64,000 bases of DNA. It comes from an uncultured Chloroflexia bacterium (GTDB taxonomy: Bacteria; Chloroflexota; Anaerolineae; CG2-30-64-16). Where the stretch lies: contig CAWEMM010000014.1 in the NCBI GenBank assembly GCA_963810095.1, positions 32,001 to 96,000 on the forward strand, in the 5' to 3' direction. Positions 31,063-62,119 of the stretch are shown here, in pieces. Numbering within the stretch: position 1 is the stretch's first letter; every line of letters begins with the position of its first letter. Position numbers and translations under genes: made by a program. The notes beneath the pieces were generated by a model. It ran no database searches and had not been told where the DNA came from. It saw nothing but the letters and a program-made list of their open reading frames with translations.

Positions 31063-32460
31063 TCACGCAAGCTCCAACGCGTCGATCAGGCTCAGGGCGG
31101 TGTGATAGCCCGGATCTGCATCCGGGTAGGCCGGCATGAGGTCGAGCGCCTGTCCGTCTGCACCGCGCAGCTTGACCGCCATGAGGTGCAGACCGGGGCG
31201 GACGTAATGCTGCACGAAAGCGTTGTGCGACAGGGCCAGAATCTCCAGGCACTCCGCCCGGTCCGCGTCTGTCTCAGCCACCTGCGCCGCGGCCAATCCC
31301 GCTCGAATCGTCTCCGGCAGGCTCCACCACGGCATCGTGTCGTCGACCGGCCGGCGTGTGAGCAGGTCGACGGTCTTGCAGATGCCGCCAACGTCCGCTC
31401 GGTAGCCGTTTGCGAACGCGCGGGCGAGCAGGCCCGGCATCGCACGCTCCATGTCTCCCATCTCGGCAAGTTGCGCGCCGGTGGCGCCACCGTAGCGGCG
31501 GACGGCTTGGCTGAACTTCAGGAACAGGCCGGCAAATTCTAGCGAGTGGCCGGGATCAGAAATCACCCGGCCCGATTCGTCGAGCAGCGGCTTGCCTTCC
31601 TCGTCGACGTATTCGACCAGGTCGTACTCTTGCAGTTCGGGCCATTTCTGTCCCAGGTTGACATGGTTTTCAATGACATAACGGGCCAGCGATAGGCCCA
31701 TGGCCGTGCTCTCCGGGCCCGGTTCGAATTGCGCGAAGAGGGCAGCCATCCCCAGGGCAATCATGGCCGGGCCATGCGTGAAGGCGCGGTCGACCCAGGC
31801 CCGAGCCCCGAAGGTGGGCTGGGGCTGGTCGCTGCGGAAGGTCCGCGCCAGGATGTCGCGATAGACGTCGAGGCAGAAGGCCCGTGCTTCTCTGGCGGCC
31901 GCCGCGTTGCCCACCAGGTTCGCCGCCGCAAACATCCCCTTGGCGCCGAACAGGTCGCTGTAGCCGTACGGTGAGCCGGCCTGCAGGTGCAGCGGCAAGC
32001 GGTCGCCGCTCGGCGCAAGGCTGAAGGCCCGGCCGGCCGGGTCCATTAAGAAATGCAGGTGGCCGTTGTTCTGGGTGCGGGCCTGCTGCAGGCGCGCGAG
32101 CAGGTCCGTCGATAGCCCACGGGCGCGTGTCAACAGCCGGTCAACCTCGGGATCGCCCTGGAAGGGCGCGAGCCACGCGGCGAACTTCGCGATGGATTCC
32201 AAGCCCCGGCCCTGCACCCAGCCGCTGGCGACATCCCGGCCGAGCAGAGGATGAACGGGCGGCAGTTCTTCACCCGTCGTGAGGTTGATCTTCGTATCGA
32301 TCCACGGGTAGTAGGCGCTGCGTTCCGTCCGGTCGAGGATCGTGCGGAACTGCGTTACGATCATGGCCTGGTACGGTTCAACGACGCGCTGCAGATCCCC
32401 GAGCGTGGTGTGAACGGGCAGGAGCACGGTCGAGTAAGTGGCATGGGTCGGAGTGAGCAT
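31063..32460 (-). CDS. AGE-family (N-acylglucosamine 2-epimerase-like) (alpha/alpha)6 epimerase
   Basis: WVQGR, YSDLF, HG, DPGHSLEF, WWSLPET, DPGYH. Confidence 0.7.
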   Translation of the reverse strand: MLTPTHATYSTVLLPVHTTLGDLQRVVEPYQAMIVTQFRTILDRTERSAYYPWIDTKINLTTGEELPPVHPLLGRDVASGWVQGRGLESIAKFAAWLAPFQGDPEVDRLLTRARGLSTDLLARLQQARTQNNGHLHFLMDPAGRAFSLAPSGDRLPLHLQAGSPYGYSDLFGAKGMFAAANLVGNAAAAREARAFCLDVYRDILARTFRSDQPQPTFGARAWVDRAFTHGPAMIALGMAALFAQFEPGPESTAMGLSLARYVIENHVNLGQKWPELQEYDLVEYVDEEGKPLLDESGRVISDPGHSLEFAGLFLKFSQAVRRYGGATGAQLAEMGDMERAMPGLLARAFANGYRADVGGICKTVDLLTRRPVDDTMPWWSLPETIRAGLAAAQVAETDADRAECLEILALSHNAFVQHYVRPGLHLMAVKLRGADGQALDLMPAYPDADPGYHTALSLIDALELA

Positions 32461-32589
32461 ATCTGTCCTTTGACAAGGGTGCGGGTATCGTGTAGCGTGC
32501 GGAACGTCGCCGCCATCTTTTCCGGCTGCATCGCCGTCATTTGAGATCGTCAGCGCTTCACCGCCGTTACTATCCAGAGGAGTGGGTCC

Positions 32590-33602
32590 ATGCGTTTCGC
32601 AATCATCGGAATCGGGAATATTGCGCCCATTCACGCCGCCGCCATTCGCGGCGTGTCGGGCGATCTGGTCGCGGTCGCCACCCGCGACGAAGGCCGCGGT
32701 CGCGCGTTCGCGGCCCAGCACGGCGGGGCGTGGTACGCCAACTACGAAGACCTCTTGGCGCAGGCCCACCCCGACGTCGTCGCCATCTGCACGCCACACG
32801 ACCTGCACGCGCCGATGACGTTGGCTGCGGCCAGGTCTGGGGCCCACGTGCTCTGCGAGAAGCCCATGGCGCGCAACGTGCAGGAATGCGACGCGATGAT
32901 TGCGGCCTGCGAGGAGGCCGGCGTCACGCTCGGCGTCGCCTTCCAGGGCCGCTTCGAGCCGTTATCGGTTAAGCTGAAAACGCGCTGGACGCGCAGCGTC
33001 TGGGCCGCCTGCTGTGGGCCAGCGCGAACACGCTGTGGCACCGCACCGACGCCTACTACCGCAGCGGTCCGTGGCGCGGCACCTGGGCGCACGAGGGCGG
33101 CGGCGTGCTGATCAACCAGGCCATCCACGCCATCGACCTGCTGATCTGGCTCGCCGGGCTGCCCGAACAGGTCACGGCCCGCATCCGCACTCTCAACCAT
33201 GCCATTGAGGTGGAGGACGCCGCCATGGCAATCATGGAGTATGCGGACGGCCGGTTGGGGTTGATCCAAGCCACGACCATCGCACATCCCGGCTACCCTG
33301 AGCGGATCGAGCTGTTCGGTTCGGCGGGCAGCGTCGTCTATAACAAGGGCCTGGCCCGGCTCGAGTGGCGGCTGGCCGACCCGCCGCAGGACTTCACCGA
33401 GGAAGGCGAGGTGAGCAGCGGCGCGGCCCGCCCCATGGACATCAACGCGGCGGGACATACCGCGCTCTACGCCGATTTTCTCGCCGCGATCCGTGAGGGC
33501 CGGCGGCCCCTTGTTGACGGCCGCGAGGGCCGGCGCAGCATCTCCTTCGTCGAGGCCGTCTACCGGTCGGCACAGTCAGGGCAGACGGCCCGGCTCGAGT
33601 GA
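32590..33602 (+). CDS. Gfo/Idh/MocA NAD(P)-dependent sugar/inositol oxidoreductase; frameshift ~32980
   Basis: IIGIGNI, CTPHDLH, LCEKPM, WRGTWAHEGGGVLINQAIHAID. Confidence 0.87.
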
Positions 33603-33625: not shown

Positions 33626-34469
33626 TCAGGAGAGGAGGTCGGGGGGCGCGGGGCGTTCGAGCGAACGCAAGTGTTGGAGCGCGCGCCGAGCCGCCGCGTC
33701 GGGGTGAGGCAGGGGCATGAACTCGCCTGAGACGAAACCGCCGTAGTTCGATCTTTGCAGCACATCCAGCAGCCTGGCGAAGTCCACGTGCCCCGCGCCG
33801 GGGTACCAGCGATTCGAGTCCGCCACGTGGACGTGGAATAACCGCCCGCCCGCGGCCTGCAGGCTCGCCTCGATAGACGGCTCTTCGATGTTGGCGTGGA
33901 ACGTGTCGAAGAGGAGGCCCAGGTTGGGCGAGCCCACCCGGTCGATCAAGTCCAGCCCTTGCGCGACCGTGTTGACCAGGGTCGTCTCATACCGGTTGAT
34001 CGGCTCGAGCGCGATTCGCACGCCCGACTTGCCCGCCTCCCAGCAGCACTCCCGGCAGCGCCCCGGTGATCCAGTCCAGCGCTTGCGCCTGGCTCACCCG
34101 CGGGCGGCCGATGCCACGCAGCAGGCCGACGATCACCAGCGCACCGAGCCGCTGGGCCAAGGGGAGGTGGGCCTTCGTGCGCTCGATGGCCGCCCGGCGA
34201 ACCGCCGGGTCGGGGTCCGAGTAGGACAGACCTTCTTCACCCCACGCCTGGCCTGTGCCAATGGCCGGTACGACCAACCCGCAGGATGCCACCAGCTCGG
34301 CCAGTTCCCCCGCATCGACCAGCCGCGGATCACGGATCGCGAGCTCGACTCCGTCATAACCCCAACCGGCGATTTTGGCGACGTTCGCTGCGAGATCCCC
34401 TTTAAGCGCGACGGCCTCGAAGCGGGCCTGCTGCACCGAAAGGACGATACTGAGCTTGAGGGGGGACAC
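33626..34469 (-). CDS. TIM-barrel sugar epimerase, IolO (5-keto-L-gluconate epimerase)-like; frameshift ~34053
   Basis: GYDGVELAIRDP, PAIGTGQAWGEEGLS, EPINRYET, DTFHANIEE, HVADSNR. Confidence 0.75.
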
Positions 34470-34502: not shown

Positions 34503-35321
34503 TTAGCCGGCGAACGCCTGCTGCATCCACGCCAGGCACGCGGCCACCGCCGGCTCGGGGTCCAGGACGTAGGACATGCCCAGTTCGGCCGAGACATAGC
34601 CGGCGTAACCCGCCGACTTCAGCGCGGCCACAAACGGCGCGAAGTCGATCGTGCCCGAGCCGGGGAGCAGGTGTGAATCGGCCGAGCGGTCGTTGTCGTC
34701 CAGGTCGACGTGGCCGAGCAATGGGCCCAGCTTGCCGACACCCTCCGCGAGATCTTCGCCGTTCACGTGCAGATGGCCCGTGTCGAGCAGGATGCCAAGC
34801 TGCGGGTCGCCGACTTCGCGCATCATGCGCAGGCCGTCGTCTAGGGTCAGGATTTGGTTGGACTCGAAGCGGTGTGCCGGCTCGATGTAGACGCGCAGGC
34901 CCGTCCCGCGGGTGTATTCCAAAAGCTCGCAGATGCTGCGGCGCAGGCATTCCCAGCCCCGCTCACGCGGCTCGTCAAACCCGCTGAACCCCGCGCACAC
35001 GTGCACTGAAGGCGCGCGGAGCAGGAGCGCGTTGTCCACATTGTCCATGATATAACGCACGCTGTCGCGGCGCACCTTCTCGTTCGTGGAAGAGAGCAGG
35101 GATGGGTAGCGGAACTGCGCGGGGATGACGTGGCACACTTCCATCCCGTACTCTGCGAGCAGGTCCTGGATTTCGCCGAGCTGCGCGTGGAGGTCCTGGC
35201 GGTACATGTGCGGCCGGCCGCCCCAAACCGAAATGCCGTCGTACCCGAGGCGGCCCAGGCTTCGGATCGCGTACTGAAGCGAGTAGTTGCTGTAGACAAA
35301 CGATGATTGGGCGAACTTCAT
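34503..35321 (-). CDS. TIM-barrel sugar epimerase, FrlC-like
   Basis: LGYDGISVWGGRPH (as in FrlC N-terminus); metal ligands in EPAH, DTGH, HVDLDD and SAE. Confidence 0.72.
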   Translation of the reverse strand: MKFAQSSFVYSNYSLQYAIRSLGRLGYDGISVWGGRPHMYRQDLHAQLGEIQDLLAEYGMEVCHVIPAQFRYPSLLSSTNEKVRRDSVRYIMDNVDNALLLRAPSVHVCAGFSGFDEPRERGWECLRRSICELLEYTRGTGLRVYIEPAHRFESNQILTLDDGLRMMREVGDPQLGILLDTGHLHVNGEDLAEGVGKLGPLLGHVDLDDNDRSADSHLLPGSGTIDFAPFVAALKSAGYAGYVSAELGMSYVLDPEPAVAACLAWMQQAFAG

Positions 35322-36570
35322 ACGGCCTCACAGGCGGCCAGCCGGTCGCGGAGTGTGTCGAACTCGCCGTACTCCTGCGCCGTATCCAGCATGGCGACGA
35401 TATTCTCGGGCGGCACGTTCGCTTGGATGTTGTGAACCTGGTTGAAGATAAAGCCACCGCCCGGCGCCAGGATGTCGATCTGCCGGCGGACATGGTCGGC
35501 CACCCCCTGCGGCGACGCCTCGGGGAGGACGTGCTGCGTATCGCACCCGCCGCCCCAGAAAACCAGGTCCCGGCCGAACTCCCGCTTGAGCCGGGCGGGG
35601 TCCATGCCCACGGCGGAGATCTGAACCGGGTTCAGAATGTCGACGCCCGCCTCGATCAGGTCAGGGATCAGCGGGTAGATGCCACCGCAGCAATGCAGGA
35701 AGACCGGCAGGCCGCTGCGCGCTTTGATGAACTGCCACACCTGGCTGTGACACGGCTTGACGAGGCGCCGGTACATGCGCGGCGACAGCTGCGGGCCGGC
35801 CTGGGTCCCCAGGTCGTCGCCCACCTGGACGATGTCGACAAACTCCCCCACTGCGTCGAGATACCGGTCGAGGTCCGCGCAGGCTGTGTCCGCCAGCCGC
35901 CGCAGCAGGGCTTCGGCCAGTGCGGGGCGGGCGCCCAGGTCTTCCATGAAGCGCTGCCAACCGCGCGCAAATTGTGCGCCTTCATAGATGCGAATGCCGG
36001 TGAGCGCGACAATCGCCTTGTCCGTCGTCGCTCGCAGGCGCTGCGCCTCGGTCCGCAGCCAGGCCAGCTCCGTGTCGGAGAGGGCGGGCGGCGACCACGC
36101 TTCGATCTCGGCCACGCTCGTCGCGTCCGCAAGCGGCTCGTAGACCGGCTCGAAGTAGAGCCCTTCCGGCGGCATCCGGTACAGGATGTGACCCGCCGTG
36201 TCGCGTATCTCCAGGCCCCCATCCTCCCGGCGGACGGGATGCAAGCCGTCCGGGATCTGCGCCGGCGACCCGTCGGGCAGGGTCCACGGCTTCCACGCCG
36301 GGCGGGCGGGATCGAGGCCGATGGCGGCGCGGGGCAGGGGCAGCGCGTCGAGCCCGAAGCGTGCGACGATGCTCATCTCGGGCTGCGCAAGCTGCTGCAT
36401 GATGTCGTACATCTGCGTCTGCCCGCCGGCCATGTGCAGATGCGCCTTCAGCCGGTTGTACGCGATGGCGTGAATGCCCGACGAGCGCATGGCGCCGAGG
36501 TCGATGGGGATGCGGTCGGCCTCCTGGTGGCGCACTGCTGCCAGGAGGCGGTCGCGCGAAGTCGGGGGTG

Positions 36571-36574
<4 letters not shown>
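35318..36574 (-). CDS. URO-D/MtaA-CmuA methyltransferase-like protein #1
   Basis: [49 protein letters not shown]. Confidence 0.85.
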
Positions 36575-37586
<1,012 letters not shown>

Positions 37587-37590
<4 letters not shown>

Positions 37591-38648
37591 GCCGTCACCT
37601 CCACGCCACTCGCCGGGGCAGCCTCTCCGGCTGCTCCGTGATACAGGAAGCAGCTGACCCGCTGCTGCTCGCCGACGGGCAAGAGCGCGGGCGAGTGTTG
37701 GTCGCACACGCCGGGCATGAACCGTGAGCAGCGGGGATAGAAGGGACAGCCCTTGGGCCGGTTGAACGGGTGCGGGATCGACCCGGTGATCGTGGGCAGA
37801 TTCGCCCGCGGTGCCATGTGAATGCTGGGGATCGACTCGAGCAGCGCATGGGTGTAGGGATGCTTCGGGCTGTGAAAAATCATGTCCACCGGCCCCTGCT
37901 CCACGACAAGACCCAGGTACATCACCGTGACGTAGTCCGCCATCTGGGCGATGACGCCGAGGTCGTGGGTGATGAAGATGATGGCTGAGTTGCGCTCCTG
38001 CTGCAGCCGGCGCAGCAGCTTCAGCACCTGCGCCTGCGTCGTCACGTCGACCGCAGTCGTCGGTTCGTCCGCGATGAGGATTGCGGGGTTGCACGAGAGC
38101 GCCATGGCGATCATCGCCCGCTGGCGCAGCCCGCCGCTCAACTGCCACGAATAGGCGTCGAGTCGCTGATCTGCTTCCGGGATGCCAACTTCCTTGAGCA
38201 TTTGGAGTGCGATATTGCGCGCGTCGCGGGCATTCACGCGCCGGTGCAGCTGAATCGCCTCGATGATCTGGTCGCCAATGGTGTGGACCGGACTGAAGGC
38301 AGCCATGGGCTCCTGGGGGATCAACCCGATCTGCCCACCCCGGATGTCGCGCATCTCCGCGCCTTTCGCGTCCAGCTTCGCCAGGTCGAGCATGCGAGTC
38401 GATCCATCTTTGGCCGTGCGCCGCATAATCATCTCTCCGCTCACGATGCGGCCGGGTGGCTCGACGATACGCAGCAGCGCCTTCATCGTCACGCTCTTGC
38501 CACAGCCACTCTCGCCGACGATCCCGAAGACCTGGCCGGGCTGAACGTCCAAAGAGATTCCGTCGACCGCCTTGACCACCCCTTCATCCATGAAGAAGTG
38601 GACCTTGAGGTCTCGGATTGAAAGCAGGGTATCGGCTTGTTGATTCAT
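37587..38648 (-). CDS. Opp/Dpp-type ABC ATPase (OppD-like)
   Basis: [31 protein letters not shown]. Confidence 0.92.
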
Positions 38649-38672
38649 GCGCCAAGTCCTTGACTGTGCAAC

Positions 38673-39812
38673 TCAGTGGCTGTAGGGATCGGCGGCATCG
38701 CGCAGGCCATCGCCGACGAGGTTGAACGCCAGCACGGAGATGACCACGGCCAGGCCGGGGATCAATAGCCAGGACGCCTGCGCAACCGTCTGGATGTTCT
38801 GGGCTTCCTGCAGCAGCACGCCCCAGCTAATAGCAGGGGGGCGGATGCCCAGCCCGAGGAAGCTCAGCGAAGTCTCGCTGATGATCATCACAGGGATGGC
38901 AAGCGTGCTCGTGGCGATGATGTGGCTCGAAAACGACGGGACCATGTGGTGCACGATAATCCGGTAGCGGCTGGCACCCGACAGTTCCGCAGCCAACACG
39001 AAATCCTCTTCGCGCAAGGAGAGAAAACGACCCCGGACCTCCCGAGCCAGCGTGGTCCAGCCGATGAAGGCCAGGATGATCGTGATGGCAAAAAAGACAC
39101 GCTCGGGCGGCCACCAGCGAGGCAGCGCCGCGGTCATGGCGAGCCAGATCGGGATGGTCGGCAGCGACTGGAGGATCTCGATCATCCGCTGGATGACGAG
39201 GTCGGGAATCCCGCCGAAATAGCCTGACACGCCGCCCAGAAGCACGCCGAGTATGACGCTCAGGAATACTGCGATCAAACCGACGGTCATGGATGTGCGT
39301 GTCCCGAACATCAGGCGCGACCACTGGTCGCGACCAAGGCGATCGGACCCAATGAGGTAGAACTTCTCGGCCGATTCCGGATCTTTCAACCCCAGGAGAT
39401 GAACGTTTGTCCTCATCCCGAGCACCTTGTACTCGTACCCCTGGGCGAAGAACTGGAGCGGAATGCGCTTATCCGGGTTGACCGTCCATTCCATGCGCAA
39501 GGTGACCTTATTCCGCTTGCCCTCGATGCCGGGCACGGACATGAAGTAGCCGTAGCGGAAGAATGAAATCCGCTGAGGTGGAATAAAGATTTGCTTTGCA
39601 CTGGTTTCGTAAGGATCGAAGGTGGCAAAGAACGCCGGCACCAGGACGATCGCGTAGAATAAGATCAGCACGAAGATGCTGACGACGGCGAGCTTGTTTT
39701 TCCGAAAACGCCACCACACCAACTTCCAGTTCGGTGCGACTGAAACGTCATCCTCTGCTCGCGAGATTGTCGTCCGCTCTACCGGGGAGGCGCCTGGGAC
39801 AGCTTCGGTCAT
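38673..39812 (-). CDS. Opp/Dpp-type ABC permease (OppC-like)
   Basis: GSDRLGRD, AAELSGAS, SLSFLGLG, FNLVGDGLRDAADP. Confidence 0.92.
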   Translation of the reverse strand: MTEAVPGASPVERTTISRAEDDVSVAPNWKLVWWRFRKNKLAVVSIFVLILFYAIVLVPAFFATFDPYETSAKQIFIPPQRISFFRYGYFMSVPGIEGKRNKVTLRMEWTVNPDKRIPLQFFAQGYEYKVLGMRTNVHLLGLKDPESAEKFYLIGSDRLGRDQWSRLMFGTRTSMTVGLIAVFLSVILGVLLGGVSGYFGGIPDLVIQRMIEILQSLPTIPIWLAMTAALPRWWPPERVFFAITIILAFIGWTTLAREVRGRFLSLREEDFVLAAELSGASRYRIIVHHMVPSFSSHIIATSTLAIPVMIISETSLSFLGLGIRPPAISWGVLLQEAQNIQTVAQASWLLIPGLAVVISVLAFNLVGDGLRDAADPYSH

Positions 39813-39813
39813 C

Positions 39814-40806: not shown

Positions 40807-40845
40807 AAGTGCACCCTCGCAGAAGGCCCCTTCGCATGGATCACG

Positions 40846-40894
40846 GGTTGCGGGTTTGAGACCCCGCCCAAGGCGGCGCCTCAAACCCGCAACC
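40846..40894. terminator. Stem-loop between binding-protein and permease genes
   Basis: GGTTGCGGGTTTGAG ... CTCAAACCCGCAACC, perfect 15-bp arms. Confidence 0.6.
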
Positions 40895-40907
40895 AAGAAC
40901 GGTGAGA

Positions 40908-42995: not shown

Positions 42996-43225
42996 TTTTC
43001 CCTTTCTCCTCGGTGAGATGGTGGACGACATCTGGATTGGATGTCTCTGGTGGATAAACGACAGGACTCCGGGTTTGCTTAACTCCGCTCGTTGAGACGA
43101 CTTGCCAACCGAACGGGTCCGGCAACCGAAAAGGCGAGACGGAGCTGGCAGCCGCACCTCCCCTTCTTGTGGGCCGGCGGCGCTTTGCACCTGCCGGCTC
43201 CCGTGGCCCACGATGTGAGCAACGG

Positions 43226-49964: not shown

Positions 49965-50413
49965 TGCGTTACGTCTTCAGTACGACCGACACGACCGTCT
50001 ATCGTTTCCCCACGCACGTGAATGAGTTGGTCCTCGACCGGTCGGAGTCGACGGTGACCGAGGTCTTCATCGTCGTGCTGGAGCCGGGCGAGGCGCCGCC
50101 GCTGCACAAGCATCCCGACACCGAGCAGGTGTTTTACATGCTGCAAGGCGAAGGCGAACTGCGGGTGGGCGAGGGGGGCGCGGAGAGCCACCGGGTGAAG
50201 CCGGGCGACCTGGTGCGCATCCCGCCTGACACGTGGCACAAGATCGTCAACGACGGGAACCTCGATATCCGCTATGTGAGCGTAGATGCGTTCCCGGGCC
50301 AGCGGCCCGCGGCCGAACCGACGTGGGACGACCACGTGCGTGCGAACTGCGCGGCCAACGGCTGGGACTTCGACAGCGTCAAGCGCGCCCGCACGACGGG
50401 GCCGGCGGCATGA
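49964..50413 (+). CDS. Cupin-domain protein
   Basis: PLHKHPDTEQVFY and GDLVRIPPDTWH. Confidence 0.85.
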   Translation: MRYVFSTTDTTVYRFPTHVNELVLDRSESTVTEVFIVVLEPGEAPPLHKHPDTEQVFYMLQGEGELRVGEGGAESHRVKPGDLVRIPPDTWHKIVNDGNLDIRYVSVDAFPGQRPAAEPTWDDHVRANCAANGWDFDSVKRARTTGPAA

Positions 50414-51600: not shown

Positions 51601-51602
51601 GA

Positions 51603-52724: not shown

Positions 52725-52743
52725 GCGAACGGAGAGGCCAAGC

Positions 52744-53972: not shown

Positions 53973-54773
53973 ATGCCAACTCAACCACTCTACGAAACCC
54001 AAGTGGACCAATTGCCCGTCAGTGTCTATCCGACCAACGACGCACTCGGGGCCGCAGCAGCCCTGGAAGCCGCCGGCATCCTGAAGGCCGCGGTTGCCGA
54101 GCGAGGCGTCGCCAACGCCATCCTCGCCACCGGGAACTCGCAGCTGACCTTCCTCACCGCGGTGCGTGCGCTGCCCGACGTGCCGTGGGGATCGGTAAAC
54201 GTCTTCCACATGGACGAGTACGTAAACTTGCCCGCCGGGCATCCCGCCAGCTTCCCGGCATTCCTCCACCGGCACCTGCTCGACCACGTCGGGGTCAAGC
54301 AGTTCTTCCCCGTGCCCGGCGTCTCGGCCGACGCGGAGGCGGCTTGCCGCGAGTACGAGGCGCTGCTGCGGGCGTATCCGGCCGACCTGACGGTAATGGG
54401 CATCGGCGAGAACGGTCACCTTGCCTTCAACGACCCGCCCTACGCGGACTTCGACGACCCGCTGTGGGTCAAGACGGTCAAGCTCGACGAGCGCTCGCGG
54501 CGGCAGCAGGTGGGCGAGGGGCATTTCGGCGGCCTCGACGAAGTGCCGACGCACGCGATCACCGTGACCATCCCCGCGCTGCTGGCGGCGAAGCGGGTGC
54601 TGGTGCTGGTGCCCGAGGCGCGCAAGGCGGAGGCGGTCAAGGCGTCTCTGCTCGGCCCGGTCACCGAGGATTGCCCCGGGTCGATTCTGCGCACCCAGCC
54701 GCACTCCCGGCTGTATCTTGACCGGGATTCGGCCGCGCTCCTGCCTGAAACGTTGTGGGCGGAGGCCGGATGA
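53973..54773 (+). CDS. nagB: Glucosamine-6-phosphate deaminase/isomerase family
   Basis: LATGNSQ, FHMDEY, GIGENGHLAFNDP, HAITVTIP, CPGSIL. Confidence 0.82.
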   Translation: MPTQPLYETQVDQLPVSVYPTNDALGAAAALEAAGILKAAVAERGVANAILATGNSQLTFLTAVRALPDVPWGSVNVFHMDEYVNLPAGHPASFPAFLHRHLLDHVGVKQFFPVPGVSADAEAACREYEALLRAYPADLTVMGIGENGHLAFNDPPYADFDDPLWVKTVKLDERSRRQQVGEGHFGGLDEVPTHAITVTIPALLAAKRVLVLVPEARKAEAVKASLLGPVTEDCPGSILRTQPHSRLYLDRDSAALLPETLWAEAG

Positions 54774-55957
54774 ACGGGCCCGCCGGCTTGACCGGGCGCG
54801 AACGGTTGCTGACGAGCCTGAACCACCGCGAGCCCGACCGGGTGCCCTACGACCTGGGGAGCACGCAAGTGACGGGCATCCATGTCGTCGCATACCGCGG
54901 CCTGCGGGAGTGCCTGGGCTTGCCGCCGGCGGAGCCCGCCATCTGCGACGAGGTGCAGGGCCTGGCCCTGCCCGACGGCGACCTGCTCGACGTGCTCGGC
55001 GTCGACGTGCGCGGGCTCTTCCCGCTCAACAGCCACAACGACGACGTCGCAGGCCGCGCCCGCCGCCAGGCCGCCGGCGATGGCGAGGTCGAGGCATTCG
55101 TCGACGAGTGGGGCATCACCCAGCACCGGCCCTATCCGCATGGGCTGTATTTCACCGCGGTGCGCCATCCGCTGGACGGCCCGATCACCGTGGCCGACGT
55201 CGAGCGCTATCCGTGGCCCAACACTGGGGACCCGCAGCGCATCGCGGGGCTGCGCGAGCAGGCGCTCGCGTACCGGGCCGAAGGCCGGGCCGTGATGATC
55301 AAAGGCGTGCTGGCGGGCATTTTCGAAATGGCGCAGCGGGTGCGCGGGATGGCGGCGCTCATGATGGACATGGCGTCGGACGAGGCGCTGGCCGAGGCGC
55401 TGCTCGACAGGATGCTGGTGCTCAAGCTGGACTTCTGGGAGATGGCCCTGCCGCAGCTGGCCGGGTTGGTCGACGTGGTCTCGGAGGCCGACGACTACGG
55501 CACACAGGTCTCGCAGTTGATCTCGCCGCGCATGTTCCGCCGGCTGATGAAGCCCCGGCTGGCAGTGCTGTTCAAGCGCATCCACGAACTTGCGCCCGAC
55601 GCAAAGCTCTTCTTCCATTCGTGCGGTAACGTGCGTCCCCTGCTCCCCGACTTTATCGAGACCGGCGTCGACATTCTGAACCCGGTGCACGTTCGGGCGA
55701 CCGGAATGAACCCCGTCGAGCTCAAGCGTGACTTCGGCAAGGACATCGTCTTCTGGGGCGGCGGGGTCGACACCCAGGACGTCCTGCCGCACGGCACCCC
55801 GCAGGAGGTTCGCGACGACGTACGGCGGAACGTGGAAGCGCTGGCGCCGGGCGGCGGCTTCGTGTTCAACACGGTGCACAACATCCAGGCCGACGTGCCG
55901 CCGGAGAACGTCGTGGCGATGTGGCAGGCGCTGCAGGAAGCCGGGGTGTACGCATGA
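54770..55957 (+). CDS. URO-D/MtaA-CmuA-like protein #5 (paralog of #1)
   Basis: HREPDRVPYDLG, DEWG, ADDYGTQ, FFHSCG, DILNPVH, FWGGGVDTQ, FNTVHNIQ. Confidence 0.87.
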   Translation: MNGPAGLTGRERLLTSLNHREPDRVPYDLGSTQVTGIHVVAYRGLRECLGLPPAEPAICDEVQGLALPDGDLLDVLGVDVRGLFPLNSHNDDVAGRARRQAAGDGEVEAFVDEWGITQHRPYPHGLYFTAVRHPLDGPITVADVERYPWPNTGDPQRIAGLREQALAYRAEGRAVMIKGVLAGIFEMAQRVRGMAALMMDMASDEALAEALLDRMLVLKLDFWEMALPQLAGLVDVVSEADDYGTQVSQLISPRMFRRLMKPRLAVLFKRIHELAPDAKLFFHSCGNVRPLLPDFIETGVDILNPVHVRATGMNPVELKRDFGKDIVFWGGGVDTQDVLPHGTPQEVRDDVRRNVEALAPGGGFVFNTVHNIQADVPPENVVAMWQALQEAGVYA

Positions 55958-57064
55958 TGGCACACCCGTTCCTCCCTTTCGAGCTGGTGTTCAATCCCCG
56001 CTGGTGGCACGAGACGGCCGGCATCTCCTTCACCCGTGACTTCTACTTCGATGCGGGAACGCGCGAGCGCAACGACGTCACCATGCGGCGAGTGCTGCAC
56101 GAGCGCTTCGGCGAGATCGGGCTGGGCGAGGCGAACCCGCAGCCCCGGCCGGTCGCGGGCTCGCTGCACGTGGCCGGCGGTTTCGCGATCCCCGCGCTGC
56201 TCGGCGCGGAGATCCAGTTCGAGCCCGACGCTGCGCCCCAGCCGCTGCCATGTCACCTGTCGCTCGAACAACTGGAGCGGCTGGAAGTCCCTGACTGGCG
56301 CAACCTGTGGCCGATGTCCGAGCTGATCGCGTCCTGGGACGAACAGCAAGGCGCGCTTCGGTTTCCTGCTGGGCGACATCAATACGGACGGGCTGCTCAA
56401 CGCGGCGTACCACTTCTACGGCCAGGACTTGTTTGCCGACTTCTATGAGGCTCCCGAGCGCGTCCGGCGGGTGCTGGACGTCATCTCGGAGCTGATCGTC
56501 GAGGTCGCACAGTACGTGCGCAGCAGGACGGGCAGTTGCTCGATTGCGGTCAACCGCATGGTCGAGCGGGTGGACCCCGCGTTGTTCCTGCATGCGAACT
56601 GTTCGGTGCAGATGATCTCGCCCCGCAGTTACAAGGCCGTGCAATTGCCCGTCGAGCAGCGCATGGCAGACCGGCTCCGGCCGTTCGGGGTGCATCACTG
56701 CGGGGCCAACATGCACCAGGTCGCGCCGGCGTACCGCGAGCTGGACCTTGCATTTGCCGATGTGGGCTGGGGGTCCGACGTGGCGGCGTGCCGGGCGGCC
56801 CTGCCGCATACGTTCCTCAACCTGCGTCTCAGCCCCATTCGGATGCTCCAGTGCAGGCCGGACGAGGTCGCGGCCGACGCGGAGCAGCTGCTGCAGGCCG
56901 CGGGGCCGCTGGACGAGGTCGGCGTCTGCTGCATCAACATGGACTATGGTACGCCGGAGGACAACATCTTCGCCGTCTACGAGGTCGTAGGCGCGGCGCC
57001 GGAGGCATGGCGGATAACCTATGACAATGTCGACGAGTACCACATCTGGCTGGCGATTATCTGA
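55954..57064 (+). CDS. URO-D-like protein #6; frameshift ~56348, true stop possibly ~57017
   Basis: VFNPRWW, PALLGAEI, NCSVQMISP, VHHCG, DVGWGSD, CCINMDYGTP. Confidence 0.68.
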
Positions 57065-58457
57065 AGATCGCTTTTTCGACCCCGAGCCGGCCCAACGCCG
57101 CGTCGCACGCGAGCTGTACGGCTCGGTCGCCGCACTGCCCATCGTCAGCCCACACGGCCACGTCGACGCGCGGCTGCTGGCCGACCCCGACGCCAGCTTC
57201 GGCACCCCTGCCGATCTCCTGATCATCCCCGACCACTACGTCTTCCGCATGCTCTACTCGCAAGGCATCCCGCTCGAAGCGCTGGGGGTGCCCGCGGTGG
57301 ACGGCGGCCCGGTCGAGCGCGATCACCGGAAGATCTGGCAGTTGTTTGCCGACAACTATCACCTCTTTCGGGGCACGCCGAGTGGCGCATGGCTCGACCA
57401 GGAGTTGGTGGAGGTGTTCGGCATCCCCGAGAAGCTGACGAGCACGAACGCTCAGGCCGTGTACGACGCGATCGAAGCCCGACTCGCGACGCCCGAGTAC
57501 CGCCCGCGGGCGCTGTTCGAGCGCTTCAACATCGAAGTGCTGGCGACCACGGACGCCGCGTCGGACCGCCTGGAGCCACACCGGCGCCTCCGGGCATCTG
57601 GGTGGGGCGGCCGTGTCGTCCCCACCTTCCGCCCCGATGCGGTCGTCAACTTGCTGACGACCGGCTGGAGCAACCATCTCGGGGCCCTGGCCGAGGCGAG
57701 CGGAATCGACATCAGCAGCTACGAGGACTTCCTCCGGGCGCTGGAAGACCGGCGCGCTTTCTTCAAGCAGATGGGCGCAAGTGCGACGGACCACGCAGCC
57801 GAAACGGCCTACACGGCCCGGCTGGGCGACAGCGAGGCGCACGCCATCTTCGCACGCGCGCTGAAGGGCGAGGCGAGCGCGGAGGACGCGCGCCGGTTCA
57901 CCGGCCACATGCTGATCGAGATGGCCCGCATGAGCATCGACGACGGTCTCGTCATGCAGCTTCATGTGGGGTCGATCCGCGGCCACAATGGCCGGGTGCG
58001 CGAGCGGTTCGGTGCGGACAAGGGCGCAGACATTCCCACGACGAGCGAGTTTACCCACAACCTGCGGCCGCTGCTCGAAGCGTTCGGAAACGATCCCCGC
58101 TTGACCCTCGTCCTCTTCACGCTCGACGAGACGACGTATGCCCGCGAGTTGGCCCCGCTGGCCGGTCACTACCCCGCGCTGCGCCTCGGTCCGCCGTGGT
58201 GGTTCCACGACAGCCCGAACGGCATGCGGCGCTACTTTGACCAGGTCATGGAGACCGCGGGCCTCTATAACACCGCAGGCTTCAACGACGACACCCGCGC
58301 TTTCTGCTCGATTCCTGCCCGGCACGACGTATGGCGGCGCGTGAGCTGCGACTGGCTGGCGGGCTTGGTCGTGCGTGGGCAACTCGACGAGGCGGACGCG
58401 GCCGAGATGGCGCGCGAGTTGGCCTACGGGTTGGCCAAGAAAGCCTACCGCTTGTGA
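57021..58457 (+). CDS. uxaC: Uronate isomerase
   Basis: LPIVSPHGH, PDHYVFRML, PTFRPD, TDH, MQLHVG, GPPWWFHD, GFNDDTRAF, ARHD. Confidence 0.93.
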   Translation: MTMSTSTTSGWRLSEDRFFDPEPAQRRVARELYGSVAALPIVSPHGHVDARLLADPDASFGTPADLLIIPDHYVFRMLYSQGIPLEALGVPAVDGGPVERDHRKIWQLFADNYHLFRGTPSGAWLDQELVEVFGIPEKLTSTNAQAVYDAIEARLATPEYRPRALFERFNIEVLATTDAASDRLEPHRRLRASGWGGRVVPTFRPDAVVNLLTTGWSNHLGALAEASGIDISSYEDFLRALEDRRAFFKQMGASATDHAAETAYTARLGDSEAHAIFARALKGEASAEDARRFTGHMLIEMARMSIDDGLVMQLHVGSIRGHNGRVRERFGADKGADIPTTSEFTHNLRPLLEAFGNDPRLTLVLFTLDETTYARELAPLAGHYPALRLGPPWWFHDSPNGMRRYFDQVMETAGLYNTAGFNDDTRAFCSIPARHDVWRRVSCDWLAGLVVRGQLDEADAAEMARELAYGLAKKAYRL

Positions 58458-58519: not shown

Positions 58520-59353
58520 ATGGACCTTGAACAACTGGCTCGCATGTACGACCTGACGGGTCGCACGTACGTGGTGACCGGCGGCACCGGGGTGTTGGGC
58601 GGCGAGGTGGCTTGTGCGCTCGCCGGCGTCGGCGCCAACGTAGTCATCCTGGACCGCAACCTGGCGCCTGCCGACGGCCTGCTCGAACGCATGGGGCCGC
58701 ACGCCTGCCAGGCAATCGCCGTGGCCGGCGACGTGCTGAACCGAGACAGCCTGGTAGAAGCTTCGCGGACCATCAACGAGCGCTTCGGTTGCGTGCACGG
58801 GCTGGTCAACACCGCGGGCGGGAACAAGCCGAATGCGACCACGGGCGCGGACCTCAGCTTTTTCGACCTGCCCGAAGACGCGCTCCGCTTCGTGCTCGAT
58901 CTCAACCTGATGGGAACGATCCTGCCCTGCCAGGTGTTCGGCCGCCAGATGGCCGAGTGCGGCGAGGGTGTCATTCTCAACTTCTCCTCGATGAGCGCGC
59001 TGCGGCCGTTGACGCGGATCGCGGGTTACTCGGTCGCCAAGGCAGGGGTGAGCAACTTCACACAGTGGCTGGCCGTGCACATGGCGAAGAACTACGCGCA
59101 GCAAATCCGCGTCAATGCGGTCGCGCCTGGCTTTTTCATGGGCGAGCAGAACCGCTTCCTGCTGACCGACAAGGACACCGGGGAACTGACCGCCCGCGGG
59201 CGGACGATCATCGATCACACGCCCATGGGGCGCTTCGGGAATCCGGAGGACCTGCTGGGCACGGTGCTGTGGTTGCTGTCGCCCGCTGCCGCGTTCGTCA
59301 CGGGTATCACCGTGCCGGTGGACGGCGGATTCTCCGCCTTCAGCGGGGTTTAG
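58520..59353 (+). CDS. SDR oxidoreductase (fructuronate reductase/D-mannonate oxidoreductase-like)
   Basis: TGGTGVLG, AGGNKP, SSM, YSVAK, NFTQWLAV, GEQNR, HTPMGRFG, DGGFSAFSGV. Confidence 0.85.
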   Translation: MDLEQLARMYDLTGRTYVVTGGTGVLGGEVACALAGVGANVVILDRNLAPADGLLERMGPHACQAIAVAGDVLNRDSLVEASRTINERFGCVHGLVNTAGGNKPNATTGADLSFFDLPEDALRFVLDLNLMGTILPCQVFGRQMAECGEGVILNFSSMSALRPLTRIAGYSVAKAGVSNFTQWLAVHMAKNYAQQIRVNAVAPGFFMGEQNRFLLTDKDTGELTARGRTIIDHTPMGRFGNPEDLLGTVLWLLSPAAAFVTGITVPVDGGFSAFSGV

Positions 59354-59465
59354 CCGCAAAGCCACGAGCGGGGGGGCTTGTGCATAAACGCACGGGGTGC
59401 GAGAAACGCGCCGGTAGGTCCCTGCTGTGAGTCGGGTCAATGCGTATGGGGCGTCAACCCTGCGA

Positions 59466-59640
59466 GGAGCGTCGCGATTGGGGGTTCCGGGGGCGAAGCC
59501 CCGGAGCGGGGGCGTCGGGGGCAGGCCGGCCCCCGACAAACAAGAAGATACTCGAAGTTGGGCCGGCCGGCCCCCGGCAAACAAGAAGATACTCGAAGTT
59601 GGGGGCCGGCCCCCGGCAAACAAGAAGATATTCGAAGTTG
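59466..59640. repeat. Dispersed repeat (copy B) whose end is triplicated as three 37-bp direct repeats
   Basis: GGCCGGCCCCCGRCAAACAAGAAGATAYTCGAAGTTG at 59524, 59565 and 59604. Confidence 0.85.
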
Positions 59641-59672
59641 GTCCGGCACCCAGAAGACAGAGGCGTTGAGCC

Positions 59673-60928
59673 ATGATCCTGAGCAAAATGATATCTGAGA
59701 CGGGCGTGTTGCCGCTCGACGCGGTCAGGCAGGCCCTTACGGCCGGGCTCGCGGCCGCTTCACCGGGCAGCGAGTGCTCGTGCTGATTCCCGACCACACT
59801 CGTTCGCTGCCGCTGCCCGCGCTGTTCCGCCTGGTCGTGGAACTGCTGCACGACGCGCGCCAGCTTGACTTCATGGTCGCCCTCGGCACGCATCCCGCAC
59901 TCCCCGAAGAGTCTTTGAACCGGCTGGTGGGGATCAGCGAGGAGGAGCGGCAGACCGCCTTCCGGCACGTCGGGTTGCTGAACCACGCCTGGGACGACCC
60001 GAGCGTCCTTGCGTCGCTGGGCGTCATCGAGCAGGACGAGATCCGGGAGATCGCCGGGCCCAGCTGGCACCCCTCGCTGCCCGACAGGGTCGACGTCCGC
60101 ATCAACAAGGCAGCCCTGGCGTACGATCACATATTGATCCTCGGGCCGGTTTTTCCCCACGAGGTCGTGGGCTTTTCGGGCGGGGCAAAGTATCTGTTCC
60201 CCGGCATTTCCGGGCCGGATATGATTAACGCGACCCATTGGCTGGGCGCGTTGGCGACAGTCGTTGGCACGATCGGAATCAAAGACACGCCCGTTCGGTC
60301 GATGATCCATGCCGCAGCCCGGCGCTTGCAGACGCCCCTCACGCTCGCGGCCCTGGTCGTCGAGGGCCACGATCTCGCAGGCGTGATCGTTGGGGATTGG
60401 GTGGACGCCTGGAGCGCGGCCGCAGATTTTTCCTCGCAGCGCCACATTCGCTGGTCAAGCGAGCCGTATCGCCGCGTCCTCTCCTGCGCCCCGGCGATGT
60501 ATGACGAACTGTGGACCGCGGCAAAGGCGATGTACAAGCTCGAGCCGGCCGTCGCGCAAGGCGGCGAGGTGGTCATCTATGCGCCGCACCTGGATGTGGT
60601 GAGTCACGTTCACGGGCAGTATATTTATGAGGTGGGCTATCACGTCCTGCCCTACTTCCTGGCCGACTGGGACCGCTATCGACACGTGCCGCTCGGCGTG
60701 CTGGCCCACAGCACCCACGTGCGCGGGTCAGGCGTGATGGACGGCGGGGTCGAACGGGCAAACGTGCGCGTGACCCTGGCCAGCAAGATCTCGGCGGAGG
60801 ACTGCGCCCGGCTGAACCTGGGCTACCTGGACCCGGCGCAGATCAACCCGGCAGAGTGGCAGAATCGCGAAGACGAGGGCATTCTTTACGTGCCCCGAGC
60901 AGGTGAGATGCTGTACCGGGTGCGCTAA
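59673..60928 (+). CDS. LarA-family (nickel-pincer) 2-hydroxy-acid racemase/epimerase; frameshift ~59745
   Basis: IPDHTR, VALGTH, NH, FPHEVVGFSGGAKYLFPG, KAMYK. Confidence 0.82.
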
Positions 60929-61021
60929 GGGGCCGCGCCGGGTTCGAGACGTGGCCCCGCAAAGAGACGGAACGGCCCGCGTTTTCTGCGCGGTCTTCCA
61001 CCACTGAAGGGAAGTTGGACG

Positions 61022-62119
61022 ATGTACGGTCTTGACATAAAAGCAGAAGGTGAGCTCGATCTCGTATCGTTGGGCGGGCTGGTCCACCGGCTCGACCCCG
61101 GGGTGATCCCTTTCCGCAAGGCGACAGAGTGCCAGATCCACGTCAGCGGCGGCGAGTTCAATGTAGCGGCCAACCTGTCGGACTGCTTCGGCATGCGCAC
61201 CGGCATCGCCAGCGCGATGGTCGATTACCCGATCGGCGACCTGATTGCCGAGCGGGTGCGCGCCATGGGTGTGACGCCTTTCTACCGGCGCTTCAAGCAC
61301 AACGGCGTCACGGGGCCGAACATGGCGACCGTGTACAGCGACCGGGGCCAGGGGGTGCGCGCGCCCGTGGTCTTCTACAACCGCGCTAACGAGGCAGCCG
61401 CGCAGCTCAAGCCGGGCGACTTCGACTGGGCCACACTCCTCGGCGGTGCCCGGTGGTTTCACAGTGGCGGCATCTTTGCCGCGCTGTCTGAGACGACCGG
61501 CGAGCTGATCATTGAGGGCATGAAGGCGGCGAAGGCTGCGGGCGCGATCACTTCGTTCGACCTTAACTACCGGGCCAAGCTGTGGAATCTGTGGGGATCG
61601 TCGCACGGCGACGCGCACGAGGTGGCGCTGGGCGTGATCCGGCGTATCGTGGAGCACGTGGACGTGCTGGTGGGGAACGAAGAAGACCTGCAGATGGGGC
61701 TGGGCATCGAGGGTCCCAAGGTTGCGGGCGGCAGCAAGTCGAAGCTCGATCCCGGCGTCTTCCTGGGCATGATCGGCAAAGTGACGGAAATGTATCCGCA
61801 GGTCAAGGTGGTCGCGACGACGCTGCGCGAAGTGCATTCGACCAATCGTCACTCCTGGGGCGCGGTGGCATGGATCGACGGCAAGACGGTCCTCTCGCCG
61901 GCCTGCGAGCTCGACGTGCTCGACCGGGTCGGCGGCGGCGATGGATTTGCGGCGGGCTTCTTCTACGGCTTGCTCGCGGGCGAGTCGGAGCAGGACGCGG
62001 TGAACCTGGGTTGGGCGCACGGCGCGCTTTTGACGACGTACCCGGGCGACACGACCATGGCGACGCTGGACCAGGTGCGGGCGTTCGCGCAAGGCGGGTC
62101 TGCGCGCATTCAGCGCTAG
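61022..62119 (+). CDS. kdgK: PfkB-family 2-keto-3-deoxygluconate kinase
   Basis: GGEFNVA, SFDLNYRAKLW, GNEED, TLREVHS, DRVGGGDGF, TYPGD. Confidence 0.82.
   Translation: MYGLDIKAEGELDLVSLGGLVHRLDPGVIPFRKATECQIHVSGGEFNVAANLSDCFGMRTGIASAMVDYPIGDLIAERVRAMGVTPFYRRFKHNGVTGPNMATVYSDRGQGVRAPVVFYNRANEAAAQLKPGDFDWATLLGGARWFHSGGIFAALSETTGELIIEGMKAAKAAGAITSFDLNYRAKLWNLWGSSHGDAHEVALGVIRRIVEHVDVLVGNEEDLQMGLGIEGPKVAGGSKSKLDPGVFLGMIGKVTEMYPQVKVVATTLREVHSTNRHSWGAVAWIDGKTVLSPACELDVLDRVGGGDGFAAGFFYGLLAGESEQDAVNLGWAHGALLTTYPGDTTMATLDQVRAFAQGGSARIQR

Follow-up and report, generated by a model that had tools for sequence, protein, structure and literature searches.

A sugar-gene block with six UroD-superfamily proteins in an uncultured Anaerolineae bacterium: candidate corrinoid-dependent demethylases of imported sugars

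The window analysed here is a stretch of 64,000 nucleotides from the genome of an uncultured bacterium of the Anaerolineae (G000:C14:32001-96000; G000 denotes the source genome, C-numbers its contigs and L-numbers the loci compared with it). Between proA, which ends at position 30995, and a UbiA gene, which starts at 62116, it contains a block of sugar genes of ~31 kb, in which six genes, designated U1 to U6, encode proteins with the uroporphyrinogen decarboxylase (UroD or URO-D) fold. We propose, with a probability of roughly 0.55, that these six proteins are corrinoid-dependent methyltransferases that demethylate uronate and amino-sugar residues of an imported oligosaccharide, with a corrinoid protein acting in trans. 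The proposal is based on the fold and family of the proteins, the linkage of their genes, the corrinoid machinery of the genome and a predicted docking. The source assembly measures 6.13 Mb in 16 contigs, has a G+C content of ~66% and is 88.5% complete. It contains 44 matches to Pfam PF01208, representing ~41 genes. Since ~0.2 such genes would be expected per 31 kb, the six observed are clustered beyond chance.

The six UroD-superfamily proteins

A first-pass annotation, made from the letters of the window, had described six genes of the URO-D fold, five with an H-x-C motif and one with H-x-D. All six indeed match PF01208 above its gathering cut-off of 23.9 bits, U6 through its C-terminal piece, and carry these motifs:

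U1, 35318-36574, minus strand: 418 residues, HCCG, 93.9 bits with PF01208; candidate substrate:corrinoid methyltransferase
U2, 47353-48381, plus strand: 342 residues, HNDT with H-N-D replacing H-x-C, 141.2 bits
U3, 50410-51600, plus strand: 396 residues, HACG, 33.6 bits
U4, 51603-52724, plus strand: 373 residues, HSCG, 43.0 bits
U5, 54770-55957, plus strand: 395 residues, HSCG, 89.8 bits
U6, 55954-57064, plus strand: HHCG, split over two frames, 31.6 bits on the C-terminal piece (56429-57064) only

The proteins were placed against characterised enzymes by model scores, a profile search of the PDB and a fold search. With the model of the tetrapyrrole enzyme HemE (TIGR01464, cut-off 302.95 bits), they score 31-53 bits or not at all: U1 reaches 31.3 and U2 53.3 bits, and there is no HemE row for U3, U4 and U6. 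The models of MtaA/CmuA-type methyltransferases (TIGR01463 and PRK06252, with cut-offs of 235.4 and 244 bits) outscore HemE for U1, U2 and U5 and are the only models of these types tabled for U3, U4 and U6. U2 scores best with them (79.3 and 100.1 bits, respectively), the others score 20-59 bits, and the best NCBIfam match of U1 stands at 40.9 bits against a cut-off of 244. Judged by sequence, the six are divergent members of the UroD superfamily and none of them is HemE; the comparison with the HemE model, proposed in the first-pass annotation, thus came out as a clear separation.

That the six are ordinary HemE or inactive pseudogene copies is very improbable. The matches to the URO-D model of Pfam, the label "uroporphyrinogen decarboxylase" that public sources attach to U5 orthologues, and the frameshift in U6 would suit such copies. 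However, a role as HemE was rejected on the model scores, and the genome has its own, true hemE on another contig (C11:71450-72468; 351 bits with PF01208). Also the gene context does not suit a role in tetrapyrrole synthesis: as the first-pass annotation had stated, the window holds no tetrapyrrole genes, and HemD was located on C11. Among the cluster representatives listed, U5 has 119 close relatives besides the window's own sequence (100%), with 72-87% identity; together with the conserved motifs, this speaks for purifying selection and against pseudogenes.

The frameshifts themselves look like bases wrongly inserted during assembly. They divide five genes of the block between frames, i.e., those for a Gfo-type oxidoreductase and one TIM barrel, uxaE, nagA, and U6, which changes frame at ~56350 and possibly again near 56990. 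In Gfo and U6, alignments with orthologues bridge both frames. Contigs of four public short-read runs from one study were inspected over 48400-57100; their shares are at most 0.20 and their depths 2-3, so that each is weak alone. Near-identical short-read contigs have one base fewer at 49268 (run X4) and at 56350 (runs X1 and X3), which are exactly the points where the orthologue alignments change frame in uxaE and U6. Thus, the frameshifts in at least these two genes look like assembly insertions rather than signs of decay. Short-read pieces also have one base fewer at 56990/56991 and 53898, and they leave the frame switch in nagA (53100-53129) unresolved. Frame splits occur genome-wide, also in hemE, an AcsC-type gene and two genes for corrinoid proteins, which suggests insertion errors of a long-read-type assembly.

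The motifs are well conserved among relatives. H-x-C-G is kept in 68 of 71 relatives of U5, 76 of 78 of U1, 13 of 14 of U4, 26 of 26 of U6 and three of three of U3, of which only two orthologues were found among 73 loci with a U5 relative (see below). The exceptions in U5 (3/71) and U1 (2/78) all read H-x-D-G. This recurring exchange of Cys and Asp at the presumed metal site fits a role as metal ligand. In a U5 family of 29 sequences, all have H283 and 90% or more have C285. At the N-terminus, U1 and U5 carry ~100-130 additional residues, and their Pfam matches start at profile positions 99-159.

U5 is the best-supported candidate methyltransferase of the six. In the profile search, its best solved relative is MtaA (4ay7, E 5e-6), with the H-x-C motifs of both proteins aligned. 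We take the zinc ligands of MtaA to be this His-x-Cys and a distal Cys, with positions read from the 4ay7 alignment. The AlphaFold model of U5 has a predicted local distance difference test score (pLDDT) of 88 and a predicted template-modelling score (pTM) of 0.90. It is closest in fold to MtaA (E 7e-14, TM score 0.71, 20% identity), with HemE structures in second place.

Linkage of the UroD-type genes to corrinoid proteins

A gene-neighbourhood survey and a search for corrinoid machinery had been suggested in the first-pass annotation. Both were productive: orthologues of U5, U4 and U1 adjoin corrinoid proteins in other genomes, and the source genome holds corrinoid proteins, RACo activators and a methyltetrahydrofolate:corrinoid methyltransferase. 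A scan of one genome per species yielded 73 loci with a relative of U5, mostly from Anaerolineae and some from Armatimonadota, Acidobacteriota, Hydrogenedentota and others. A profile built from the source genome's own B12-binding domains detected a B12-binding open reading frame (ORF) in six of them, and Pfam confirmed five as proteins of 212-223 residues with B12-binding_2 and B12-binding domains. In L019, the stop codon of the corrinoid-protein gene overlaps the start of the U5 orthologue. The corrinoid protein lies immediately upstream of the U5 orthologue in L016 and adjoins it divergently in L042. In L022, whose operon in other respects follows the gene order of the window, it is located between a U4 orthologue (60% identity) and nagA, and in L026 it is found inside the opp genes, between oppC and oppD. 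A metagenome scan for U1 relatives gave 80 loci (36-78% identity), five of which hold a corrinoid protein. When the six small corrinoid proteins of the source genome were compared with those beside orthologues, the ones near U5 and U4 orthologues were closest to an orphan on C11 (C11:184990-185739), with 57-62% identity.

Co-folding of U5 with this orphan corrinoid protein gave a score of 0.81, against 0.00 for the best of three controls; the mark applied is reached by 116 of 157 solved complexes and by two of 215 mismatched pairs. U5 was the only one of the six to be co-folded. At least 94% of the contacts recur between runs, and the partner has a pLDDT of at least 86. In the predicted interface, the DxHxxG loop of the corrinoid protein (residues 99-109) lies on the invariant 245-252 loop of U5, at the mouth of the barrel. 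The model supports docking of the corrinoid protein at this site.

The genome contains all parts of a three-component system, i.e., corrinoid proteins, RACo and a methyltetrahydrofolate-forming methyltransferase (methyltransferase II, MTII). There are 22 B12-binding matches, three RACo activators and pterin-binding methyltransferases. The methyltetrahydrofolate:corrinoid methyltransferase at 66.5 kb on C6 passes its model (NF005719, 344.5 versus 259 bits) and lies beside a corrinoid protein and RACo. These genes belong to a split methionine-synthase-like cluster (C6:61893-67467; L074:5894-11468) with a betaine/homocysteine-type S-methyltransferase (338.1 versus 338 bits), the corrinoid protein, RACo and the MTII. 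The cluster could be a sink or a source of corrinoid-bound methyl groups. A Wood-Ljungdahl-type cluster (C6:920000-938000; L075) comprises three ORFs of the CdhD family, RACo, a CooC-like gene, an AcsE-like gene, FolD and a MetF-associated domain; AcsC/D-, AcsE- and FolD-type genes are present in the genome.

The association with sugar genes extends to the other URO-D genes of the genome. Twenty regions of the genome were annotated with Pfam and NCBIfam, and 36 non-HemE URO-D genes were examined (four short fragments left out). We count 33 of these 36 as lying within ~5 kb of a gene for sugar import or regulation, or for a sugar kinase, isomerase or glycosidase, and ten lie within 6 kb of a corrinoid protein. 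In four sugar clusters, URO-D genes are paired with a corrinoid protein: C12:434-452k, which also contains a glycoside hydrolase of family 4 (GH4), Gfo and five TIM barrels, and C9:88-108k, C6:1208-1228k and one on C16, all three with ribose-type ABC importers and sugar kinases. Many URO-D genes that lack a neighbouring corrinoid protein adjoin sugar importers, kinases of the FGGY, PfkB and ROK types, RhaM with fucose isomerase (FucI), RhaA or a GH106-like gene. Paralogues lie by rhamnose mutarotase and fucose isomerase at C7:456088-458866 (L084), by rhamnose isomerase at C12:374884-378666 (L088) and by a GH106-like rhamnosidase at C9:63524-64672 (L091). These rhamnose/fucose-type neighbours hint at methylated deoxy-hexoses as further substrates.

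A quick tree of the paralogues, of 51 rows and rooted on the genome's HemE, was made with ORFs of more than 520 residues cut to their last 430; C9_105838, C11_71833 and C6_293136 were left out. Corrinoid-adjacent paralogues are scattered among its clades and form no separate clade. U1 and U5 fall into one clade of 14 rows (support 97) that includes corrinoid-adjacent paralogues, and U4 clusters with two paralogues linked to corrinoid proteins (support 93). U2 has a clade to itself, and U3 and U6 are on long branches of unsure placement.

The phyletic distribution was compared in 61 genomes of the class, each at least 80% complete, with up to 28 URO-D candidates scored per genome, so that matches are not copy numbers. 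RACo is present in 49 of the 61. All 32 genomes with at least four URO-D matches have RACo, and the 12 without it have 0-3 matches. The expansion of URO-D genes is class-wide: seven of the 61 genomes (G000, G022, G026, G032, G038, G055 and the like) have at least 28 scored matches, and up to 81 and 78 candidates per genome were counted at first look.

Several points weigh against a corrinoid-dependent demethylation of sugars by the six proteins. B12-binding matches were found neither in the window nor elsewhere on its 328-kb contig, and 67 of the 73 U5 loci and 75 of the 80 U1 loci, many of them short, lack a corrinoid protein. The demethylase function suggested in the first-pass annotation is favoured in part, by the distinctness of the proteins from HemE, the corrinoid machinery of the genome, the linkage of orthologues and the co-fold of U5, but not by the contig itself, and the carrier must act in trans. 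Five of five genomes whose operon is free of corrinoid-protein genes do encode RACo and small corrinoid proteins elsewhere. All six proteins are far under the cut-offs for membership in the MtaA/CmuA family (at best 100 versus 244 bits). However, the corrinoid-adjacent paralogue in the sugar cluster with GH4, Gfo and TIM barrels scores similarly low (38 bits) with the MtaA models, so that low scores do not argue against corrinoid use. The third Cys ligand of MtaA, in the motif PGCG, aligns with a Gly in U5, and the site of U2 (H-N-D) is without any Cys. The co-fold may echo solved complexes of methyltransferases with corrinoid proteins, and cousins of the true partner can pass as well. The correlation with RACo is supportive, not decisive, since the genomes are kin, and it is unspecific because RACo also serves the corrinoid protein/acetyl-CoA synthase of the Wood-Ljungdahl pathway. 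Searches of the genome, which is 88.5% complete, gave no match for CbiC or CobS. The cell may therefore rely on imported cobamide; either it is a cobamide auxotroph or the genes are in the missing 11.5%. Finally, three to six paralogues per operon are more than one methyl group requires, and methyl ethers of sugars are worse leaving groups than aryl ethers.

Some of these points would suit the alternative that the fold has been repurposed for corrinoid-independent sugar chemistry, e.g., to decarboxylate, isomerise, deacylate or cleave (as a lyase) uronates or amino sugars in a metal-dependent way, with the neighbouring corrinoid proteins being coincidental or serving other paralogues. Besides the rarity of corrinoid proteins in orthologous loci and the lack of the third Cys in U5, the invariance of H-N-D-T in all 34 relatives of U2 fits this explanation. 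Moreover, the conserved operon core has no obvious glycosidase, N-acetylglucosamine (GlcNAc) kinase or mannonate dehydratase (UxuA), so that some steps are unfilled, and HemE shows that the UroD fold works without a cofactor. Nevertheless, we regard this explanation as unlikely. It agrees poorly with the corrinoid proteins within the same operon order in L022 and L026 and with the stop/start coupling to U5 in L019. Also the interleaving of corrinoid-adjacent paralogues in the tree, the presence of RACo in all 32 URO-D-rich genomes and the co-fold, with the cobalamin-binding loop predicted at the barrel mouth, speak against it.

The sugar operon and its probable substrate

The neighbouring genes named in the first-pass annotation were all found at the family level with Pfam and NCBIfam. 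Also the overlaps of start and stop codons reported there are real and amount to four bases each, at oppF/U1, U1/TIM2, cupin/U3, nagB/U5 and U5/U6. The other genes of the block are:

31063-32847, minus strand: GlcNAc 2-epimerase-like (alpha/alpha)6 protein (PF07221, 36.8 bits), with the true start probably downstream of 32847; no match in NCBIfam and in PDB sequences
32590-33602, plus strand: Gfo/Idh/MocA oxidoreductase in two frames, split near 32980 (PF01408 on 32590-33111, PF02894 on 33105-33602)
33626-34021, minus strand: xylose-isomerase-like TIM barrel, C-terminal part in frame (PF01261 positions 121-248 only), N-terminal part upstream in another frame
34503-35321, minus strand: TIM2, xylose-isomerase-like TIM barrel of the sugar epimerase/isomerase type (PF01261, 138.5 bits); best NCBIfam match fructoselysine 3-epimerase, under the cut-off (138 versus 305 bits)
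36571-43283, minus strand: Opp/Dpp-type ABC importer (ABC_tran with oligo_HPY twice, BPD_transp_1 twice, SBP_bac_5 with 200 bits), i.e., oppF, oppD (37587-38648), oppC (38673-39812), oppB (39814-40896) and a large family-5 binding protein (40908 to ~43200)
43226-44119, minus strand: xylose-isomerase-like TIM barrel (PF01261, 117 bits)
44160-45005, minus strand: KduI/IolB-family isomerase (PF04962, 198 bits; TIGR04378 iolB, 169 versus 205 bits, under the cut-off)
45053-46051, minus strand, and 46291-47331, plus strand: two divergent LacI-family regulators (LacI and Peripla_BP domains)
48476-49964, plus strand: uxaE, tagaturonate/fructuronate epimerase (PF16257 positions 1-245 and 251-473 in two frames, switch at ~49268)
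49964-50413, plus strand: small cupin (PF07883, 68.9 bits), kept beside U2/U3/U4 orthologues (L019, L026, L042, L028, L058)
52708-53899, plus strand: nagA, GlcNAc-6-phosphate deacetylase (NagA_N/Amidohydro_1 in two frames, switch between 53100 and 53129)
53973-54773, plus strand: NagB-like protein of the glucosamine-6-phosphate deaminase/isomerase family (PF01182, 87.5 bits; TIGR00502, 122.6 versus 236.9 bits, under the cut-off)
57021-58457, plus strand: uxaC, glucuronate/galacturonate isomerase (NF002794, 532.3 versus 387 bits)
58520-59353, plus strand: short-chain dehydrogenase/reductase (SDR) of the D-mannonate oxidoreductase subfamily (NF006132, 347.6 versus 281 bits)
59774-60928, plus strand: LarA-like protein, putative nickel-pincer hexonate epimerase (PF09861; NF052594, 133.9 versus 500 bits, under the cut-off)
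61022-62119, plus strand: PfkB-family sugar-acid kinase, similar to 2-keto-3-deoxygluconate (KDG) kinase (PF00294; best NCBIfam match the kinase half of NF041633, 237.8 versus 700 bits)

Intact orthologues of nagA pass TIGR00221 (226.7 and 238.3 versus 225.65 bits). An assignment of the cupin as KdgF was dropped, as its PDB sequence matches are generic cupins only. The label "inositol-type" given to the block in the first-pass annotation is one of the weaker parts of that reading, as it derives from a single gene of the KduI/IolB family, which is below the iolB cut-off.

Ahead of the block, the window starts with 31 kb of unrelated genes, i.e., those for ABC exporters, MarR, an aminotransferase, two-component regulators, a P-type ATPase and a peptidase, as well as proB/proA, a set for NrfD, an FeS protein and cytochrome c, and a fatty-acid desaturase. 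The desaturase (15561-16652) is of an oxygen-dependent type and the NrfD set (11603-14714) includes a multihaem cytochrome, although the genome has Wood-Ljungdahl-type genes.

Among the loci with U5 relatives, an operon recurs in the order oppABCDF - nagA - nagB - U6 - (Gfo) - U5 - U2 - uxaC - uxaE - SDR - LarA-like - kinase. In 29 long loci, i.e., those with at least 6 kb on either side of U5, nagA/nagB, U6 and U2 were each found 16 times, uxaE 14 times, uxaC 12 times and U4 eight times, and opp genes were present in 13-15 loci (oppC/oppD in 15). A shorter form consists of opp - U5 - U2 - uxaC - uxaE. In L028, this short form is accompanied by a heparinase-II/III-like protein, an oligogalacturonate lyase of the PL22 type, KduI and a KduD-like SDR, and further loci encode, in addition, 6-phosphogluconate dehydrogenase, an aldo-keto reductase and an esterase of the GDSL type. 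On the side of U1, the order opp - U1 - TIM barrel is kept in the three closest loci, with opp-U1-TIM2 in L094 and L095.

From the content of this recurrent operon, its substrate would be an imported acidic oligosaccharide that contains hexuronate and, in many lineages, N-acetyl-hexosamine, and that is probably acetylated. A GDSL/SGNH esterase is located between nagB and the URO-D genes in L041 (6194-6901) and L058 (9367-9981), not in the window, and suggests that the substrate may be O-acetylated as well. The presence of UxaC and UxaE, together with the lyases found in related loci, speaks for galacturonate or glucuronate, which makes 4-O-methyl-glucuronate and methyl-esterified galacturonides the prime candidates for the methyl-bearing residue.

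The exit through hexuronate and KDG that the first-pass annotation had drawn is backed in part. UxaC, UxaE, the mannonate-oxidoreductase SDR and the KDG-kinase-like PfkB protein are in place, but UxuA was not found in a search of the 88.5%-complete genome, and related operons add 6-phosphogluconate dehydrogenase (L041:15262-20021; L058:16309-20846; L022:9669-11285). In the window (58520-62119), the mannonate oxidoreductase is combined with the LarA-like putative hexonate epimerase and the PfkB kinase. Judged by these genes, the exit may run from mannonate via gluconate to 6-phosphogluconate rather than via KDG.

The carbohydrate context also bears on another explanation, i.e., that the proteins are corrinoid methyltransferases with a non-carbohydrate donor or acceptor, such as the methoxylated aromatic aglycone of a glycoside or a methylated amine or thiol, or that some of them (e.g., U2 or the H-x-C forms) are MTII-like and transfer a methyl group from the corrinoid protein to an acceptor such as a thiol. 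The multiple paralogues of an operon would suit pairs of substrate:corrinoid methyltransferases (methyltransferase I, MTI) and MTII, and the orthologues of U5 and U2 are adjacent in 16 of the 29 long loci. In MtaA, the H-x-C site serves to activate a thiol as acceptor. Furthermore, the characterised MTIs of the UroD superfamily that are named in three reports use aromatic ethers, halomethanes, methyl-thiols or methanol-derived methyl groups (PMC13222342, PMC10418091, PMC8630106). Yet, the genes are translationally coupled to sugar genes, LacI regulators and sugar-type importers are nearby, as is the case for 33 of the 36 URO-D genes examined in the genome, no aromatic-compound genes were seen in the window, and a pterin-type MTII is present elsewhere in the genome. 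Overall, a non-carbohydrate partner seems improbable.

If the six proteins are indeed demethylases of imported sugars, the Opp-type ABC system would import an acidic oligosaccharide with uronate and N-acetyl-hexosamine residues. The U-proteins, acting as MTIs, would then move a methyl group from a sugar residue to the cobalt of a corrinoid by Co(I) attack, while a metal at the conserved H-x-C/D site would hold the leaving oxygen. The methyl groups could be ethers, such as in 4-O-methyl-glucuronate, or methyl esters of galacturonate. The carrier would be a corrinoid protein encoded elsewhere, with the C11 orphan as the best candidate, kept reduced by RACo-type activators. From there, the methyltetrahydrofolate:corrinoid methyltransferase on C6 would pass the methyl group to tetrahydrofolate, for use by the Wood-Ljungdahl genes or in methionine synthesis. 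The demethylated uronate would enter via UxaC, UxaE and mannonate oxidoreductase, and the amino sugar via NagA and NagB. What we infer in this scheme is that the organism depends on corrinoid for the reaction, which way the methyl groups flow and, most of all, what the substrate is.

Known systems and significance

The proposed mechanism is of a known kind. The UroD superfamily includes the O-demethylase MTIs MtvB, OdmB and VdmB, the dehalogenases CmuA and CdmB, and MtaA-type enzymes, and its known MTIs need three partners, namely a corrinoid protein, an MTII of the pterin type and an activator; in Acetobacterium dehalogenans alone, there are 26 such systems, as these reports state (PMC13222342, PMC10418091, PMC8630106). 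Closest in composition are MtvABC of Moorella, OdmB/VdmB of A. dehalogenans and MtoABCD of Methermicoccus, in which, as described in the reports, a UroD-type MTI is combined with a corrinoid protein of ~210 residues with B12-binding_2 and B12-binding domains, a pterin MTII and a RACo-type activator (PMC13222342, PMC8630106). All four parts are found in the genome studied here. However, these three-component O-demethylases act on aromatic methyl ethers and are encoded in one gene cluster, whereas the MTI-like genes described here lie in sugar operons, mostly without a corrinoid protein of their own. Furthermore, there are ~40 of them versus the six small corrinoid proteins compared, and their context is carbohydrate; the distinction from MtvB, OdmB and VdmB is made by their descriptions.

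Other members of the superfamily differ in other respects. The methylcobamide:coenzyme M methyltransferases MtaA and MtbA (4AY7) are nearest to U5 by profile and by fold, with the H-x-C aligned, but their family cut-offs are far from reached, the Cys of PGCG is a Gly in U5, and U1 and U5 have the extra N-terminal region. Coenzyme M is not expected in a bacterium. HemE shares the TIM-barrel fold and the Pfam family and is second among the fold matches, but it needs no cofactor and its model TIGR01464 is not reached here. CdmBCA of A. dehalogenans consists of a UroD-type MTI, a corrinoid protein and an MTII, and shows how the superfamily diversifies by substrate, with zinc being present in some of its MTIs and absent in others; its halomethane substrate is reached via a hydrophobic channel, and its genes are clustered, without a sugar context (PMC13222342). 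The structure of CdmB was not among the matches in the fold search with U5.

The same task, i.e., removal of a methyl ether before catabolism of the sugar, is performed in marine bacteria by P450 O-demethylases acting on 6-O-methyl-galactose, as reported (PMC6292453). In contrast to the mechanism proposed here, their chemistry is oxidative and oxygen-dependent; their fold is unrelated, and the locus contains no homologue. This P450 enzyme was the only sugar demethylase encountered in a literature search (supplements not covered), in which no work was found that ties UroD-type or corrinoid methyltransferases to sugars, uronates, pectin or Anaerolineae. A recent preprint names Anaerolineae only as enriched taxa (10.64898/2026.01.06.697959). 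Thus, the mechanism is of a known kind, but the carbohydrate context and the dispersed layout with a shared carrier were not found described in the literature searched.

Methylated sugars are common in polymers of plants, algae and bacteria, e.g., xylans contain 4-O-methyl-glucuronate and galacturonan is methyl-esterified, and fucose, rhamnose and xylose also occur in methylated form. To our knowledge, no enzyme is known for their demethylation without oxygen. We tentatively extend the reading to a hub-and-spoke "sugar methylotrophy" in Anaerolineae and in some Armatimonadota, Acidobacteriota and Hydrogenedentota, which is a possibility rather than an expectation. Dozens of substrate-specific UroD-type methyltransferases, each in a different sugar-uptake operon, would pass methyl groups to a few shared corrinoid proteins and on to tetrahydrofolate and the Wood-Ljungdahl pathway, thereby removing methyl ethers, and perhaps the methyl esters of pectin, from carbohydrates without oxygen. 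Such a system would supply anaerobes with the equivalent, so far missing, of the P450 sugar demethylases, and the methyl groups of polysaccharides would bypass free methanol.

The locus supplies concrete objects for testing, i.e., six enzymes, a binding protein and a candidate corrinoid partner. If the proposal for the six proteins is true, it would answer how anaerobes unblock methylated sugars and would assign a role to an unnamed and very large expansion of genes, with counts per genome of the class that reach at least 28 scored matches and 81 first-look candidates. It would also tie polysaccharide breakdown to one-carbon metabolism in an abundant, little-cultured group of bacteria.

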